Assembly: GCA_038062455.1 (NCBI GenBank)
Contig: JBBTXE010000001.1
Span: 186,371 to 250,370, forward strand
DNA length: 64,000 nucleotides
Direction of reading: 5' to 3'
Origin: Patescibacteria group bacterium
Lineage (GTDB): Bacteria; Patescibacteriota; Microgenomatia; UBA12405
A program made the translations under genes and the position numbers. The notes under the pieces were generated by a model, which was not told the DNA's origin, ran no database searches, and saw only the letters and a list, made by a program, of their open reading frames with translations. How positions within the stretch are numbered: the first letter of the stretch is position 1; every line of letters starts with the position of its first letter. Positions 6,004 to 64,000 of this stretch are shown piece by piece.

Positions 6004-7491
6004 GTGAATTTCAAAAAAAATCGTCAACCAGAAATTAGCTTGTTTCTCCTTTTTCTTCTAGCGATTGCCCTCCCTTTTTCATTTAAAGCCTCAAGGAATG
6101 TTGCTAATGTTTATCAATATGCAACTAATCCCCTTGGCGTTGCCACTACCACCCCCCTTCCAACTTTGGGGTTAGGGGAACTAAATAACATAAAAATCTT
6201 TATCACCGATCCGATCTATTCCACCGCTACATCCCCAAATTTTACTCGGGTTACCTTTCATGTTACCGGTATTGGAGTTTCCAGTTTTAATTCACTCACC
6301 GGTAAATATTACTATGGTAGTACTCCTAAAACATTTACCTTGACTAAGGTTGGAACAGAGTTATCCGGCCGGATTGATTTATATGGCCCCGACATTATTG
6401 AGTTTTACAGCCCCAATGGGCTTTATCTTGCCTCTCTTTGTCTGGCAACCAACATGTATGGCATTAATCAAGGTGATTATCTCTATGGTCCTAAATGCGG
6501 CAGCGTCGCCAATGTTCGTATTTTTTACAATTATCCCAACTATATATATAAAAATAAACTATCAGCTGTTGCCTATTCACTTCCCTACACCAAAATTCAA
6601 ACTCCTTCATTTAAACCTACAAACGTATTTTTTATTCTCCAAAGCCCAACCGGTTTTACCAACGTCGAACCATGGATTACTCCAAACAATTCCTCTATGT
6701 GTAGCCAACCGACAGCTAAAATGATGGTTTTCAGCTCTTTTGAAGACACTTCACCTCAATATTACGATCTTATTAATGCCTATTCCTGCATGTTTCGAAC
6801 CCCCTATGGCCAACCCTTAAATGAATTTATATTTAACAATAAATATTTAACCATCCTACCCTGGTTCGGTCCTACTCCATCTCCGATTCCTACAATTACT
6901 CCAACCCCTACTCCCACTCCAACCTCAATACCTACACCGACACCACAACAATTTATTAAAGTTGACGCCCCCAATGGTGGTGAAATTTTGACTGTCGGCT
7001 CAACTACCACAATTATTTGGTCCTCCGTCGGTATAACGTTAGTCAGCCTTGATTTGATTGATCAATCCGGTTTTGGTTCTGGTATTGCCCTGAACATTTC
7101 GTCTGTTCCCAATACTCTCACTTGGGTCGTTCAAAAAACCTACCACCAACCCAATCAATCCTGGTTCAAAATTCGAATTATCGGTGACCAGAATCCAAAC
7201 ATATCCGATCTATCCGATGATTATTTTACTATCAATAGCATTCTTCCTACACCAACCAATACCCCAATTCCCACAAGTACTCTTACACCTACCCCAAGAC
7301 CATCCAATATTCCTACTCTAACCCTTTCTCCCACCAAGCGTCCAACCCCCACTCCCACAAGGCGTCCTACACCTACTCCCACCATTAGAATTGGTCGCTG
7401 CGGTACTGCTTATCTTCGTTACTGCGCACTGCGGCATATGCTTTGCCAAAGAATAAACAACCGTGACACCTGCGTTCCCTATAAAAAATAG
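6004..7491 (+). CDS. Secreted protein with Pro/Thr-rich linkers and a Cys-rich C-terminus
   Basis: GTG start; N-terminal signal/TM (ISLFLLFLLAIALPF). Two PT linkers (PTPSPIPTITPTPTPTPTSIPTPTP; PTPTNTPIPTSTLTPTPRPS...RRPTPTPT) flank a beta-sandwich-like module (APNGGEILTVGSTTTIIWSS...DDYFTI). Four Cys in the last 30 aa. Confidence 0.6.
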   Translation: MNFKKNRQPEISLFLLFLLAIALPFSFKASRNVANVYQYATNPLGVATTTPLPTLGLGELNNIKIFITDPIYSTATSPNFTRVTFHVTGIGVSSFNSLTGKYYYGSTPKTFTLTKVGTELSGRIDLYGPDIIEFYSPNGLYLASLCLATNMYGINQGDYLYGPKCGSVANVRIFYNYPNYIYKNKLSAVAYSLPYTKIQTPSFKPTNVFFILQSPTGFTNVEPWITPNNSSMCSQPTAKMMVFSSFEDTSPQYYDLINAYSCMFRTPYGQPLNEFIFNNKYLTILPWFGPTPSPIPTITPTPTPTPTSIPTPTPQQFIKVDAPNGGEILTVGSTTTIIWSSVGITLVSLDLIDQSGFGSGIALNISSVPNTLTWVVQKTYHQPNQSWFKIRIIGDQNPNISDLSDDYFTINSILPTPTNTPIPTSTLTPTPRPSNIPTLTLSPTKRPTPTPTRRPTPTPTIRIGRCGTAYLRYCALRHMLCQRINNRDTCVPYKK

Positions 7492-7650: not shown

Positions 7651-9963
7651 TCACATCTTTTCCAATATCTTTATTCCTAGTATCGTCAAACCGTCTTTAA
7701 TTATTTTAGCCGTCACTTTGGTCAAAAATAATCTCTGTTCTTCATGTGCTTCGCCGATAATCCGATGTTTTCCATAAAACTCATTATATTTCCGGGCTAA
7801 TATCAGCAAATATTCTGCCAACACTGCCGGAGAAAATCTATCCGCCGCCTCAACTATTTTTTCGCTATATTGATAAAAATACCGCAGTAGTGCCTTTTCC
7901 TCTTCATTAAATTCGTAATTTGTAATTCGTAATTCGTAATTGGTTTTGGCTTTAGCCAAAACGCTCCGGCATCTGGCATAGGTATATTGCAAATATGGTC
8001 CCGAATTTCCCTCCATACTCATCACTTTATCCCAATCAAAAATGATGTCCCTTTTGGGGTCAGCCGATAAATCATTAAATTTAATCGCTCCAATGGCTAC
8101 TGCTTCAATCTCCGCCTCAGTGTTTGTCGGGGCAATCTTTTTTGCCTGTTCTTTAGCCGTTTCTATTATTTCGGCCAAGTGGATTGTGTCACCTTTCCGA
8201 GTAGAAAATTTGCCTTCTTTCCAACGGATTAGACCATGCCCTATATGGATAAAACTATCTCCCCAGCCCATCAATCTGGCTGCCGCAAAAACTTGTTTAA
8301 AATGCAGGTTTTGTTCCGACCCCACCTCATAAATAATTAAATCCGGATTCCATTTTTCCTTTCTAAATTTGACCGTCGCCATATCCCGGGTAAAATAGGT
8401 TGTGGCTCCGTCGGACTTAAGAAGCATTGCCGGCGGAAGACTCTTCATCTCCACCATCAGTGCCCCCTCTGATTTCTTGGTTAGGCCTCCAGCCTTCATT
8501 TCTGAAATCACTTCCGGAAGCATTGGCAAATAAAACGCCTCACCGTAAGCATTATCTATTTTGACATCCAGCATTTCATAAACCCGGTTAAATTCATTCA
8601 TTGATATATCAACGCAATCCTGCCAGATTTTTTTAGCTTCTCCATTACCTTGTTCCAGTTTGGCAAACCAGGCTCGAGCCTCGTCCTCCAGTGTTTTATC
8701 AGTTTCGGCTTCTTCATGAAACTTCACATACAACTTTTCCAAGCCCTCAATTGTCTCCTCCATTCCCCAATGTTTAATTGCGGTAATCATTTTGCCAAAT
8801 TGAGTTCCCCAATCACCCAAGTGGTTGTCCCCGATGCATGTCCAACCTAAGGTTTGGTAAATATTGTAGAGTGCCTGACCGATGTTGGTCGACCGCAGGT
8901 GGCCTATCCCAAAGGGTTTGGCAATATTCGGGGCGCTGTAATCGATTACCATTGTTTTTCCTTTACCAATTTTTTTCAGCTCATCTTTTTGTTTACCGTT
9001 TAATATTTTTTCGGCCTCTTTTGCCAATACTTCTTGTTTCAGCCAGAGGTTTGAGAAACCGGTCACCTTATCCATTTTTTCAATAATATCCAAATCGGTT
9101 ACATCAACATCTCCCCGTATTGCAAAATCCCCAAAGTTATCCGCCGGATGGGTTATCGGTACACCAACTTTATCGTGTATATTTTTTGCCAGAAAATAAT
9201 ACTTCTTTTCCACCACTTTCTTTTCTATCTTATTTACTTCAAAATCAGCTAGTTTTTTTGATTCAAAATTAATCTCTGCTTCCGGATGATCTTTATTGAG
9301 AATCAAAATTTCCCCCTTACCTCCAAGATTCCTAGTCACATAGTCAATAAATTCTTCAGCAATTTTAACTAGTTCTTCTTTATTGCTTTCAAATCCATCC
9401 ATGACAAAATAGCCATTTTTAGATTCCGGAGTTAATTTAGTCCGATCACACTGTCGCCAGTTCCAAGATCGGCAGGTAACGTCTAGATCATCCCGCCAGA
9501 TCAATTCCCCTTCAAATGCTGGTTTACTTTTGGTTGAGCCAATGACCACCCATCTTTCCCCACCTTTGGCTAATGTTAGTACCAAGTTCCCGCAAGACTG
9601 ATCCAAATTTTCTCCGCCAAACGGTGTCAAATACTTGACACTAAAAGCATTGTAGGTATTAACAATGGTGTTAATATCGGGCAGCTTTGAACCTTCTAAA
9701 AGCCTCTTGGTTAGGGCTATGTGCGATGGTTCGGCTTCCTCGATGGCTCCAAAATCTTTAAACACTTTTCGGTATTCAGTTACTCTTTTATCTTTTTCCC
9801 ATGTTACCTTATCTATATTTTTTAAAAAATCGTTTTGCACTGTATCCAAAAACATGGCCGATTCTTCTCTTTTTATTCCGGCATTAAATCCGTAAACAAT
9901 CGGTACCACCTCCACCATCTCCGGAAATTTCTCAAATACCGTTTTATCAATTTTGAATTTCAT
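7651..9963 (-). CDS. argS: Arginyl-tRNA synthetase with N-terminal B3/B4 (PheRS-beta-like) domain
   Basis: 770 aa. The C-terminal ~520 aa are ArgRS (PNIAKPFGIGHLRS, DHLGDWGTQFGKM, GNSGPYLQYTYARCRS, DALR-type anticodon domain). The first ~235 aa match the COG3382 B3/B4 family pattern (LPDINTIVNTYNAFSVKYLTPFGGENLD...TCRSWNWRQCDRTKLT). Confidence 0.9.
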   Translation of the reverse strand: MKFKIDKTVFEKFPEMVEVVPIVYGFNAGIKREESAMFLDTVQNDFLKNIDKVTWEKDKRVTEYRKVFKDFGAIEEAEPSHIALTKRLLEGSKLPDINTIVNTYNAFSVKYLTPFGGENLDQSCGNLVLTLAKGGERWVVIGSTKSKPAFEGELIWRDDLDVTCRSWNWRQCDRTKLTPESKNGYFVMDGFESNKEELVKIAEEFIDYVTRNLGGKGEILILNKDHPEAEINFESKKLADFEVNKIEKKVVEKKYYFLAKNIHDKVGVPITHPADNFGDFAIRGDVDVTDLDIIEKMDKVTGFSNLWLKQEVLAKEAEKILNGKQKDELKKIGKGKTMVIDYSAPNIAKPFGIGHLRSTNIGQALYNIYQTLGWTCIGDNHLGDWGTQFGKMITAIKHWGMEETIEGLEKLYVKFHEEAETDKTLEDEARAWFAKLEQGNGEAKKIWQDCVDISMNEFNRVYEMLDVKIDNAYGEAFYLPMLPEVISEMKAGGLTKKSEGALMVEMKSLPPAMLLKSDGATTYFTRDMATVKFRKEKWNPDLIIYEVGSEQNLHFKQVFAAARLMGWGDSFIHIGHGLIRWKEGKFSTRKGDTIHLAEIIETAKEQAKKIAPTNTEAEIEAVAIGAIKFNDLSADPKRDIIFDWDKVMSMEGNSGPYLQYTYARCRSVLAKAKTNYELRITNYEFNEEEKALLRYFYQYSEKIVEAADRFSPAVLAEYLLILARKYNEFYGKHRIIGEAHEEQRLFLTKVTAKIIKDGLTILGIKILEKM
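7909..7941 (-). repeat. 7-nt tandem repeat (AATTACG x ~4.5) in frame inside argS
   Basis: Minus strand aattacg aattacg aattaca aattacg aattt encodes NYELRITNYEF at the junction to the anticodon-binding domain. Confidence 0.8.
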
Positions 9964-14028: not shown

Positions 14029-14061
14029 TTTTTTCAATTTTCATTTTTTTGCATTTTTTAG

Positions 14062-14134
14062 TGACGCTACCGGGAGTCGAACCCGGGTTAGTAGAATGAG
14101 AATCTACTGTCCTAAACCACTAGACGATAGCGCC
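14062..14134 (-). tRNA. tRNA-Glu (anticodon CUC)
   Basis: 73-nt cloverleaf read by hand. Acceptor GGCGCUA/UAGCGUC; D stem GUCU/GGAC; anticodon stem GUAGA/UCUAC with loop UUCUCAU; T arm CCGGG-UUCGACU-CCCGG; discriminator A. CCA is not encoded. Confidence 0.85.
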
Positions 14135-16173: not shown

Positions 16174-16190
16174 TTAGAAATTAGAAATTA
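16174..16190. repeat. 7-nt tandem repeat TTAGAAA x2.5 (intergenic dprA/yraN)
   Basis: ttagaaa ttagaaa tta; same unit as the in-frame repeat in lysS (21160..21192). Confidence 0.6.
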
Positions 16191-20175: not shown

Positions 20176-22035
20176 ATGTCGGATCTCACCGATCAACGCC
20201 TCCAAAAACTGGCCGCTATCAAAAAACTAAAACTTGATCCCTATCCTCAACCCAACCTGGAAAAACGGGACTGGTGTCAGGAAGCTGCTCAAAAACTTGA
20301 TAAAATCGTTACTGTTGCCGGCCGTCTCCTGCTTCTCCGCGGCCACGGCAAAATTTTGTTTGCCGATCTTGTCGACAAAACCGGCAAAATCCAACTTTTT
20401 TTTGAACAAAACACTCTTGACGCTAAAATGGGTTTGGTTAAACTTTTAGATTTAGGTGACATTATTTCCGCCATCGGCACCGTTTTCAAAACTCAAGCCG
20501 GTGAAATTACCGTTCGGGTTTCTGAATTTCAAATTCTGGCCAAAAATCTCCGCCCTCTTCCGGAAAAATTTCATGGGCTGACCGATGTCGAGGAACGCTA
20601 TCGTCAACGTTACGTTGATCTGATTGTCAATCCTGCATCCCGGGAAGTTTTTCTCACCCGTAGCAAAATATTAACCGAAATGAGGCGTTTTTTTGACGTT
20701 CATGGCTTTTTGGAAGTCGAAACTCCCATCTTGCAGCCGGTCTATGGCGGCGCCTCGGCCAAACCTTTTGTCACCCGCCACCATGAATTAAATCAGGACA
20801 TGTATCTGCGGATTTCCGATGAACTTTATCTAAAACGCCTGATTGTCGGCGGTCTGGAAAAAGTCTATGAGGTTTCCCGGGATTTTCGTAATGAAAGTGT
20901 CTCCCGTTTTCACAATCCCGAATTTACTCAAGTCGAATTTTATTGGGCCTATGTTGACTATGAAGTCCTGATGCGTTTTACCGAAGAGCTGATCTCTCAT
21001 TTGGTCAATACCATCAAAGGTTCTTTAAAAGTCACTTTCCAAAACCAAACCATCGATTTTACCCCGCCATATCCGCGTCTCACTTTCCGCGATGCTGTCC
21101 TCAAATACACCAAAATTAACATCGACGATATTAATACCGAATCCGATTTTATTCATGCATTAGAAATTAGACATTTGAAATTAGAAATTACGGGGCTCAT
21201 TGGCTTAGGAGCCCTGTTCGACGCCCTCTACAAAGAATATGTTCGCCCCAAGCTAATCGGTCCGCTTTTCCTTACCGATTATCCTTCAGAAATGATTGCT
21301 CTGGCCAAAAGGAAAGCCGATGACCCCCGAAAAATTGCCTCTTTTCAGCTTTTAGCCTGTGGTACCGAGCTTTTAAAAGCCTACAATGAGTTAAATGATC
21401 CCCGGGATCAAAAAGACCGTTGGCTTCAGGAAGAAATCTTGGCCAAAAGGGGATTGGAATCGGCCATGCCGATTGATGATGATTATATTCGGGCCCTGGA
21501 ATACGGTATGCCGCCCACCGCCGGCTGGGGGATGGGTATTGACCGCTTCACCCAATTCTTAACCGACTCCCCTACTATCAAAGACGTAATTTTGTTCCCC
21601 TCCATGAAAAACGAAACCACCCCCGTCATTGCGACCCCCGGATCGTCATTGCGAGGTAATCCGAAGCAATCTCCACCGAGTGGCGAGATCATCATCGGTC
21701 AGGTTACGGAAATTAAAGATCACCCATCTGCTGAAAATTTAAAAGTTGTTATGGTCAAGGTTTCAGACTCCGATTCCCGCCAAATTGTCTGTGGAGCCGA
21801 TAATTATCAGGTTGGTGATCTTGTCCCGGTGGCTCTTCCCGGTACTACTGTTCCCACTCCCGATGGCGGTACTCAAGTTATTGCCAAGGTTAAACTTCGC
21901 GGTGTTGAATCTGACGGCATGCTCTGTTCACCCCTAGAAGTCGGCGCTTCCTCCGATCACACCACTATTCACATCCTTTCAAAAGAACTCGAAAAGCATC
22001 TGGGGAAACCTATTGTTGAATATCTGAAGGAATAA
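20176..22035 (+). CDS. lysS: Lysyl-tRNA synthetase (class II) with C-terminal tRNA_bind (Trbp111/CsaA-like) domain
   Basis: 619 aa. OB anticodon domain; class II motifs (RDFRNESVSRFHNPEFTQVEFY, GMGIDR). Extra ~115 aa C-terminal domain GQVTEIKDHPSAENLKVVMVKV...IVCGADNYQVGDLVPVALPG...KLRGVESDGMLCS. Confidence 0.9.
   Translation: MSDLTDQRLQKLAAIKKLKLDPYPQPNLEKRDWCQEAAQKLDKIVTVAGRLLLLRGHGKILFADLVDKTGKIQLFFEQNTLDAKMGLVKLLDLGDIISAIGTVFKTQAGEITVRVSEFQILAKNLRPLPEKFHGLTDVEERYRQRYVDLIVNPASREVFLTRSKILTEMRRFFDVHGFLEVETPILQPVYGGASAKPFVTRHHELNQDMYLRISDELYLKRLIVGGLEKVYEVSRDFRNESVSRFHNPEFTQVEFYWAYVDYEVLMRFTEELISHLVNTIKGSLKVTFQNQTIDFTPPYPRLTFRDAVLKYTKINIDDINTESDFIHALEIRHLKLEITGLIGLGALFDALYKEYVRPKLIGPLFLTDYPSEMIALAKRKADDPRKIASFQLLACGTELLKAYNELNDPRDQKDRWLQEEILAKRGLESAMPIDDDYIRALEYGMPPTAGWGMGIDRFTQFLTDSPTIKDVILFPSMKNETTPVIATPGSSLRGNPKQSPPSGEIIIGQVTEIKDHPSAENLKVVMVKVSDSDSRQIVCGADNYQVGDLVPVALPGTTVPTPDGGTQVIAKVKLRGVESDGMLCSPLEVGASSDHTTIHILSKELEKHLGKPIVEYLKE
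21160..21192 (+). repeat. 7-nt tandem repeat (TTAGAAA-like x ~4.5) in frame inside lysS
   Basis: ttagaaa ttagaca tttgaaa ttagaaa ttacg encodes LEIRHLKLEIT. Confidence 0.75.
21623..21690 (+). repeat. In-frame copy of the GTCATTGCGAG palindromic element inside lysS
   Basis: cgtcattgcgac ccccggat cgtcattgcgaggtaatccgaagcaatctcc..., versus the intergenic copy cgtcattgcgagggtaataccaaagcaatcacc at 7561. Translated as PVIATPGSSLRGNPKQSPPSGEII. Confidence 0.75.
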
Positions 22036-63432: not shown

Positions 63433-64000
63433 ATGACAACACCAACCCTATCTATCATTATTCTCACCTGGAACACGGCCGACATTACCTGCAGTTGTCT
63501 CTCAAGCATTGTTAAACACCTTAAAAATATCGTTTACGAAATTATTGTTGTCGACAACAACTCCACCGACAATTCTGTGTTGAAAATTAAATCATTAATT
63601 CATTCATTGAAAATTGAAAATTGTAAATTGAAAATTAATCCCCAAAATTTAGGTTTTGCCCGGGGAAACAATGCCGCCTTAAAACATGCCAAAGGTAAAT
63701 ATCTTCTCTTTCTCAATTCCGACATGGAAATCCTCGATTCTTCAATTGCCGACATGCTTAAATTTTTTATAAAGAATAAAGATATTGGCGCCATTGGTCC
63801 GGCTTTTTTAAATCCTGACTTATCCCCCCAAGGTTCAGTTTTTCCTCCCCAAACTATTAAAAACGCCTTTTTGGAATTTTGGTTAGGCAAAGCGGCTTAT
63901 TCAAAATTTGTCCCTCAATCAAGGTCACCCCAACCGGCATGGTCAATTTCTGGTGGGGCCATACTCATTTCCAAAAAACTCTTCCGCCAAATTGGGGGCT
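63433..64000 (+). CDS. Family-2 glycosyltransferase (partial, runs off the window)
   Basis: Hand translation from ATG 63433: MTTPTLSIIILTWNTADIT...VVDNNSTDNS...NLGFARGNNAAL...FLNSDME. Not in the ORF track because it has no stop within the window. Confidence 0.7.
   Translation, partial: MTTPTLSIIILTWNTADITCSCLSSIVKHLKNIVYEIIVVDNNSTDNSVLKIKSLIHSLKIENCKLKINPQNLGFARGNNAALKHAKGKYLLFLNSDMEILDSSIADMLKFFIKNKDIGAIGPAFLNPDLSPQGSVFPPQTIKNAFLEFWLGKAAYSKFVPQSRSPQPAWSISGGAILISKKLFRQIGG
63606..63640 (+). repeat. 7-nt tandem repeat (ATTGAAA x ~5) in frame inside the last GT2 gene
   Basis: attgaaa attgaaa attgtaa attgaaa attaatc encodes LKIENCKLKIN between the DxD-proximal beta-strand and the NLGFARGNN motif. 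Confidence 0.75.

Follow-up and report, generated by a model that had tools for sequence, protein, structure and literature searches.

Heptanucleotide units form the most abundant class of long simple sequence repeats (SSRs) in most prokaryotic genomes, and polymerase slippage has been proposed for them, as the work of Mrazek et al. (2007) is relayed in PMC4679880 and PMC4692102. In the same second-hand account, the SSRs found in genes have unit lengths that are multiples of three. Three tandem arrays of period 7, all in frame within genes and two of them in genes for aminoacyl-tRNA synthetases (aaRSs), are described here. They lie in a 64,000-nt stretch of a Patescibacteria group bacterium (assembly GCA_038062455.1, contig JBBTXE010000001.1, positions 186,371 to 250,370 of the forward strand), referred to below as the window and numbered from its first letter. 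The likeness to the long SSRs of prokaryotes, as relayed from Mrazek, Guo and Shah (2007), lies in head-to-tail 7-nt units, a dominant period of 7, locus-specific units and the proposed involvement of slippage. All three window arrays consist of head-to-tail 7-nt units in at least three copies, and period 7 is dominant and above expectation both in the window and in 505 kb of DNA from the same clade. The mainly intergenic location of that class is not shared by the window arrays, which all lie in genes. They also differ from it in belonging to a lineage of the candidate phyla radiation (CPR) and in what appears to be fixed length with concerted evolution, not copy-number polymorphism.

Other heptamer systems offer further points of comparison. 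TAACTGA direct repeats occur in Beggiatoaceae, cyanobacteria and Bacteroidetes, in sets of two to six copies (MacGregor 2015, PMC4679880). Some of them lie in open reading frames (ORFs), in the stop-free orientation, and like the window arrays are translated into 7-residue-periodic peptides, for example LSVINYQLS, which lies in a variable loop on the surface of a protein resembling RNA polymerase beta-prime; the same paper reports that intergenic heptamer sets of Cyanothece strains differ by 7-nt indels (PMC4679880). This family has one dominant unit, found mostly just upstream of start codons, whereas the arrays of the present clade have many units and no start-codon association; the window arrays are mid-gene, and TAACTGA is present in none of the 28 arrays analysed. 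The GGGAATC and GGGGAYT repeats of Xanthomonas and Nostoc are G-rich and mainly intergenic, and their four-unit preference has been read as a G-quadruplex (Rehm 2015, PMC4692102); the window arrays are AT-rich, so that no quadruplex is possible, yet they show the same size preference. The STRR (short, repetitive, repeated in tandem) sequences of cyanobacteria (Mazel 1990) are likewise tandem heptamers, also found in the variable region of an essential gene, that of RNase P RNA (Vioque 1997, cited in PMC2858038). STRR sequences reportedly comprise three defined units in heterocystous cyanobacteria, and their essential-gene case is an RNA gene without a reading frame. An STRR identity or cyanobacterial origin of the window arrays was rejected, given the lack of highly iterated palindrome (HIP1) sites, the Shapirobacteria relatives and the units AATTACG, ATTAGAA and ATTGAAA. 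In-ORF repeats of Borgs reportedly have a unit length divisible by three and contribute disordered regions. Borg tandem repeats resemble the present ones in being local nucleotide-level repeats translated into new peptide segments (PMC9879509); the unit here is 7 nt, and most of the segments have kept their length. In the literature searched, no account of heptamer repeats from CPR or Patescibacteria turned up.

Each window array measures 31-32 nt, or about 4.5 heptamer units. Tandem Repeats Finder (TRF) located all three where the original prediction had placed them, and translation bore out its quoted peptides NYELRITNYEF (argS), LEIRHLKLEIT (lysS) and LKIENCKLKIN (a family 2 glycosyltransferase, GT2). 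The argS array (7910-7941, minus strand; period 7, 4.6 copies, 92% matches) has the coding-strand units AATTACG, AATTACG, AATTACA, AATTACG and AATT, encoding (T)NYELRITNYE(F). The lysS array (21159-21190, plus strand; period 7, 4.6 copies, 84% matches) reads ATTAGAA, ATTAGAC, ATTTGAA, ATTAGAA and ATTA, encoding LEIRHLKLEI, and the GT2 array (63606-63636, plus strand; period 7, 4.4 copies, 91% matches) reads ATTGAAA, ATTGAAA, ATTGTAA, ATTGAAA and ATT, encoding LKIENCKLKI. A separate common scoring scheme covered periods 4-24, with a threshold score of at least 12 and a dinucleotide-shuffle null. It gave three period-7 arrays in the window against 0.03 per shuffle, and 0-1 arrays for each of the other periods; chance periodicity was rejected on this ground.

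Two shorter intergenic copies named in the original prediction are also present: TTAGAAA in 2.4 copies (16174-16190) and ATTTTCA in two copies adjoining tRNA-Glu (14030-14043), neither assigned to a strand. They are evidence of nothing, because two-copy heptamers stand at background frequency and do not occur more often than two-copy repeats with another period. As regards structured RNA near the arrays, Rfam and ARAGORN gave only this tRNA-Glu (14061-14134) in the window, and a structured-RNA or tRNA-related origin was rejected accordingly. A 24-nt tandem repeat of 2.4 copies (7328-7384), whose unit is an ordinary multiple of three, makes a helpful contrast with the heptamers; it lies in the ORF at 6004-7491, which encodes a 495-residue protein without Pfam match, and its translation is Pro/Thr-rich and PTKRPTPT-like. 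GC skew is negative (-0.05 to -0.22) across the whole window regardless of gene orientation, the plus strand being consistently C-rich.

The periodicity of the arrays resides at the DNA level. When codons were resampled synonymously according to genome codon usage, lag-7 identity was in excess in argS (P=0.0013), lysS (P=0.00065) and GT2 (P=0.007), and equally in two divergent lysS arrays at the related loci L019 (P=0.007) and L020 (P=0.005), that is, in 5/5 arrays tested. The claim that these repeats are not ordinary coding sequence is upheld by these values (P = 0.0007-0.007 in the window). A protein-level origin is rejected by the resampling and by the existence of arrays in intergenic DNA. 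It is thus scarcely credible that the periodicity reflects chance, a side effect of codon usage or a selected heptad-like peptide. The AT-rich genome, with an observed/expected ratio of 1.56 for AATT, would favour such an origin, as would the conservation of LKIxNxKLKI-type peptides in orthologues with non-periodic DNA, but the shuffles, the resampling and the intergenic arrays all speak against it.

Comparison between relatives points to maintenance of the arrays and to coordinated change of their units. Third positions in arrays differ at 3/33 synonymous sites, against 37-42% gene-wide (binomial P=1.4e-4). The lysS units of the window, written in the TTA register, are TTAGAAA, TTAGACA, TTTGAAA, TTAGAAA and TTACG. 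At L019, with 68% protein identity, they are TTGGAAA, TTGGTAA, TTTGAAA, TTGGAAA and TTGCC, and L020 has TTAAAAA-type units. Between the window and L019, four A-to-G changes are spread across the units, two of them non-synonymous, and at L028 lysS has taken on the consensus TTGGAAA in its third unit as well, with Trp in place of a conserved Leu. Such changes have the appearance of concerted evolution. Synonymous positions are held in the 7-nt register; at short evolutionary distance the arrays diverge less than the surrounding gene, and at longer distance all units change together.

Departures from perfect repetition fall where stop codons would arise. A perfect ATTAGAA array would put TAG in frame, and lysS has TTG there; a perfect ATTGAAA array would put TGA in frame, and GT2 has TGT, its sole departure from perfection. 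Among 19 coding arrays, eight would contain a stop if perfect, and all eight depart from the consensus at that codon; in several of them this position is the only departure. That an ORF is free of stops is trivial; the near-perfection of the arrays elsewhere is not.

The same class of array recurs across the lineage. The organism is a groundwater member of Candidatus Shapirobacteria (CPR, Microgenomates). The nearest genomes belong to that group, the closest with 84% ArgRS identity, and 10 contigs, drawn from several groundwater samples of the Hainich, encode an ArgRS identical to that of the window. Two genome records with 55% identical ArgRS (L011 and L015) are titled 'uncultured Gammaproteobacteria bacterium', which looks like a taxonomic mislabel of CPR bins. 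The 505-kb clade set, of Shapirobacteria/Microgenomates DNA, combines the window with 13 argS loci and with 11 others retrieved by way of LysRS, GT2 and ArgRS homologues. It contains 30 period-7 arrays, against at most 3 for each other period from 4 to 15, period 14 excepted. The three window arrays are thus local examples of a lineage-wide feature. About 9-11 of the 30 (roughly a third) lie outside long ORFs, whereas the three strong arrays of the window are all coding; as non-coding DNA makes up only a small share of these genomes, the intergenic portion probably still holds more than its due. The length mode is sharp, 15 of the 30 arrays measuring 31-32 nt, coding and intergenic alike. Period-7 scores are bimodal, with a background at about two copies, nothing at 21-23 nt and a peak at 31-32 nt.

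Units are diverse within this set, about 20 different ones among the 28 arrays analysed, with none dominant. The units had been thought related, and they are indeed somewhat more alike than composition predicts: 68 pairs lie within one mismatch, against 42 +/- 5.5 for shuffled units, and an AATT core occurs in 15 of the 28 arrays against 5.9 expected. Part of this is explained by the genomic excess of AATT. A common unit or master sequence with a common origin is not claimed, because orthologous arrays and the AATT excess account for part of the likeness. An architecture with a variant third unit (U-U-V-U-u) is shared by 7 arrays, while in 2 it is the second unit that varies; this was judged non-significant and partly a detection effect.

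The host genes encode conserved enzymes, and the arrays occupy their variable parts. argS (7651-9963, minus strand) encodes a 770-residue protein with Pfam domains B3_4, tRNA-synt_1d (class I ArgRS catalytic) and DALR_1 (anticodon-binding). In its structural model (mean predicted local distance difference test score, pLDDT, of 86), the array peptide sits in residues 672-686, which in the anticodon-binding domain form the sole coil linking helix 655-671 to helix 687-696, and pLDDT falls to 67 there. lysS (20176-22035, plus strand) encodes a 619-residue class II LysRS with tRNA_anti-codon, tRNA-synt_2 and C-terminal tRNA_bind domains. The array peptide (residues 329-339) covers the end of helix 322-331 and the coil 332-343, in the subdomain between motifs 2 and 3; model confidence is 82-91 locally and 69 on average. 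The GT2 gene (63433-64000, plus strand; Pfam Glycos_transf_2) is cut by the window end. The assignment of the three arrays to surface loops or variable regions is well borne out for ArgRS, with its inter-helix loop and pLDDT dip, and is reasonable for LysRS and GT2. To judge by sequence variation among homologues, the array sites appear to be segments tolerant of change. Appended tRNA-binding domains are shuffled among the aaRSs of the clade: ArgRS has an N-terminal B3_4 and LysRS a C-terminal tRNA_bind, some LysRS orthologues also carry B3_4 (844-849 residues), and many ArgRS orthologues (about 520-530 residues) are without it; P0009, P0029 and P0034 are cases in point.

Permissive sites are hit repeatedly by different units. 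At the ArgRS loop the unit is AATTACG in the window and at L006, CAAACAT at L009, TTCCTTC at L016 (Collierbacteria) and CTTCAAT at L029, with 17-19 of 21 lag-7 matches each, against 8-13 in orthologues without arrays. About 25 of 120 ArgRS homologues have 7-residue-periodic peptides at this loop, from at least seven unrelated peptide families. LysRS and GT2 sites carry the related peptide families LEIRHLK, LEIGNWK, LKIKNFK and LKIENCK, and the peptide LKIKNFKLKI is common to one LysRS and GT2 proteins. Similarly, the length-variable UvrC loop between PQVxA and IGLAKK holds an AAGATCT array at L019 (4261-4291) and a CAATCTA array at L020 (3662-3693), while nothing periodic was found there in four other orthologues. 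The peptide IYDLR, encoded by uvrC-loop arrays, is also found in an N-terminal ArgRS array at L010.

Segment lengths in orthologues bear on whether the arrays were inserted. Between the anchors YLQYTxAR and PxVLAEY, the ArgRS segment has 47 residues in the window protein, and the mode among 120 homologues is 47-49. For LysRS, 120 homologues were likewise drawn upon; both anchor motifs were matched in 87, of which 83 have a segment of 35 residues, and no indel was found at the array site among 22 aligned orthologues. The GT2 segment, at 23 residues, is 4-7 longer than the 16-19 of most orthologues, the closest of which (70% identity) has 17 non-repetitive residues at the array site; the long form, with the peptide LKIKNFKLKIN, is also seen in two orthologues of 60% identity, whose DNA is not periodic. 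The GT2 array is directly abutted by a period-8 repeat, ATTAATTC in 2.9 copies (63586-63608), which falls in the stretch by which the segment exceeds that of most orthologues. Because the ArgRS and LysRS segments are length-matched and only that of GT2 is longer, the arrays are mostly rewritings of existing segments, not added sequence, and the common-insertion reading holds only in part. The original prediction had taken conserved, non-repetitive orthologous sequence of equal length as the mark of chance periodicity. Equal length was found at two sites, but many orthologues carry heptamer arrays of their own, with other units; since the equal-length sequence is not conserved and non-repetitive, this comparison does not settle the matter.

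Addition of the arrays by a common insertion mechanism, such as a three-unit in-frame expansion or a small mobile cassette, had also been put forward; in the light of these lengths it is distinctly unlikely. The idea fits the longer GT2 segment and the array-bearing uvrC loops, which are longer than the shortest orthologous loops, and a size of 31-32 nt does equal a 10-11-nt proto-repeat plus 21 nt, an in-frame gain. It fails for ArgRS and LysRS, where no length gain was seen, and the long GT2 form is common to orthologues with non-periodic DNA. The arrays are not bordered by conserved flanks or by terminal repeats, and intergenic arrays reach an equal size without any frame constraint.

The arrays are probably heptanucleotide SSRs whose units are made alike by misaligned copying from one to another, with selection for an intact reading frame acting as the filter. 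In the course of replication or repair, the strands of an array would anneal one 7-nt unit out of step, and sequence would pass from a unit to its neighbour through slippage, templated misalignment or short-patch conversion. Such copying would homogenise the array, amounting to concerted evolution, while selection would purge products that shift the frame, create a stop codon or lose a needed residue. The outcome would be an array as perfect as the ORF allows, with a variant unit wherever perfection gives TAG, TGA or TAA, and the encoded 7-residue-periodic peptide would be a tolerated by-product. Transient misalignment or short conversion that homogenises the units at constant length seems a better fit than stepwise gain and loss, because sizes are bimodal, lag-7 excess is lacking, assemblies are identical and one-unit steps are frameshifts.

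Several observations weigh against this explanation. No slippage product was found: five assemblies of the population are identical and gapless over up to 18 kb including the argS array, and orthologous coding arrays retain the same length. With the arrays masked, a diffuse lag-7 signal is absent (0.2613, against 0.2686 at lag 4 and 0.2649 at lag 10); since two-copy heptamers are at background too, the arrays do not resemble the tail of a stepwise slippage process. The 31-32 nt size mode, found in coding and intergenic arrays, is not predicted by simple slippage. Single-unit steps being frameshifts, growth within an essential gene needs conversion or steps of 21 nt, neither of which has been directly observed. 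Conservation at synonymous sites would also follow if the DNA or RNA were itself a functional element under purifying selection. As for copy-number steps of 7 nt between strains, the five consensus assemblies show none; the variant argS unit stands at position 3 in the window and at position 2 at L006, which would fit compensated unit shifts.

The same assemblies bear on phase variation, in which gain or loss of units would switch the genes as contingency loci. A change of one unit does shift the frame, 7 not being a multiple of 3, and heptanucleotide tracts are reported to drive switching in some Haemophilus loci. The genes here are housekeeping genes, including two for aaRSs, and the arrays lie mid-gene or late. 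Phase variation by unit number, as suggested in the original prediction, is not supported because five independent assemblies agree in unit number and the arrays are interrupted by variant units; with strict length conservation in orthologues, it is highly improbable.

Purifying selection on functional nucleic-acid elements would account for the synonymous conservation in another way. Such an element might span about 32 nt and serve as a platform on which an oligomeric protein binds the DNA or RNA, each subunit contacting one heptad. Contiguous heptads are known binding arrays for the omega repressor. Ribbon-helix-helix (RHH) repressors of the omega type and cold-shock-domain proteins are conceivable binders, if unlikely ones. 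The uniform size of about 4.5 units in coding and intergenic arrays would suit a platform of this kind, and CspB binds heptamer repeats (PMC4679880). The shared heptad consensus expected of omega/RHH iteron arrays is, however, not found among the roughly 20 units. Units differ widely between arrays and even at one orthologous site, so that no single sequence-specific binder fits. The sites are mid-gene loops of unrelated housekeeping genes with no shared context, and many orthologues do without an array, with no visible consequence. A functional element of this kind is unlikely on balance.

The size preference seems to extend beyond the clade. A metagenome scan for AATTACGAATTACGAATT gave at least 120 contigs (loci L030-L149), selected only for an AATTACG array. 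Among the matches listed, contig GC spans 27-67%, and none encodes a relative of the window ArgRS. These listed matches hold at least 101 further heptamer arrays of other units (for example at L032, L039, L043, L052 and L058), whose length mode is again 31-33 nt, with the caveat that assemblers using k of about 31 may collapse perfect arrays and so confound the size mode in this set. The caveat does not extend to the window arrays, because they are interrupted, in frame and length-matched. The four-unit size preference published for G-rich heptamers seems to hold for AT-rich units too. A templated process intrinsic to polymerase or repair might then write or maintain arrays at about 4.5 units (about 32 nt) in many phyla, converting sequence in place, a suggestion that is possible but doubtful.

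The arrays do not make up a novel type of genetic element: an excess of heptamers, a preference for four units and heptamers within ORF surface loops have all been published. What is added here is their presence in essential aaRS genes, recurrent hotspots, fixed-length concerted evolution and the preference for four to five units in AT-rich arrays. The heptamer-repeat phenomenon is thereby extended to the CPR, and essential genes are seen to harbour a non-triplet microsatellite over long evolutionary spans and yet stay intact. One ArgRS loop rewritten by at least seven different heptamers is a clean case, provided by nature, in which to tell mutational drive and selection apart. The like size of AT-rich arrays casts a testable doubt on the G-quadruplex explanation of the four-unit preference. 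If a templated process of the kind suggested is at work, the published preference would be a general property of that process and not a G-quadruplex effect, and the process would be a recurrent generator of new 7-residue-periodic loop peptides, including in essential enzymes.

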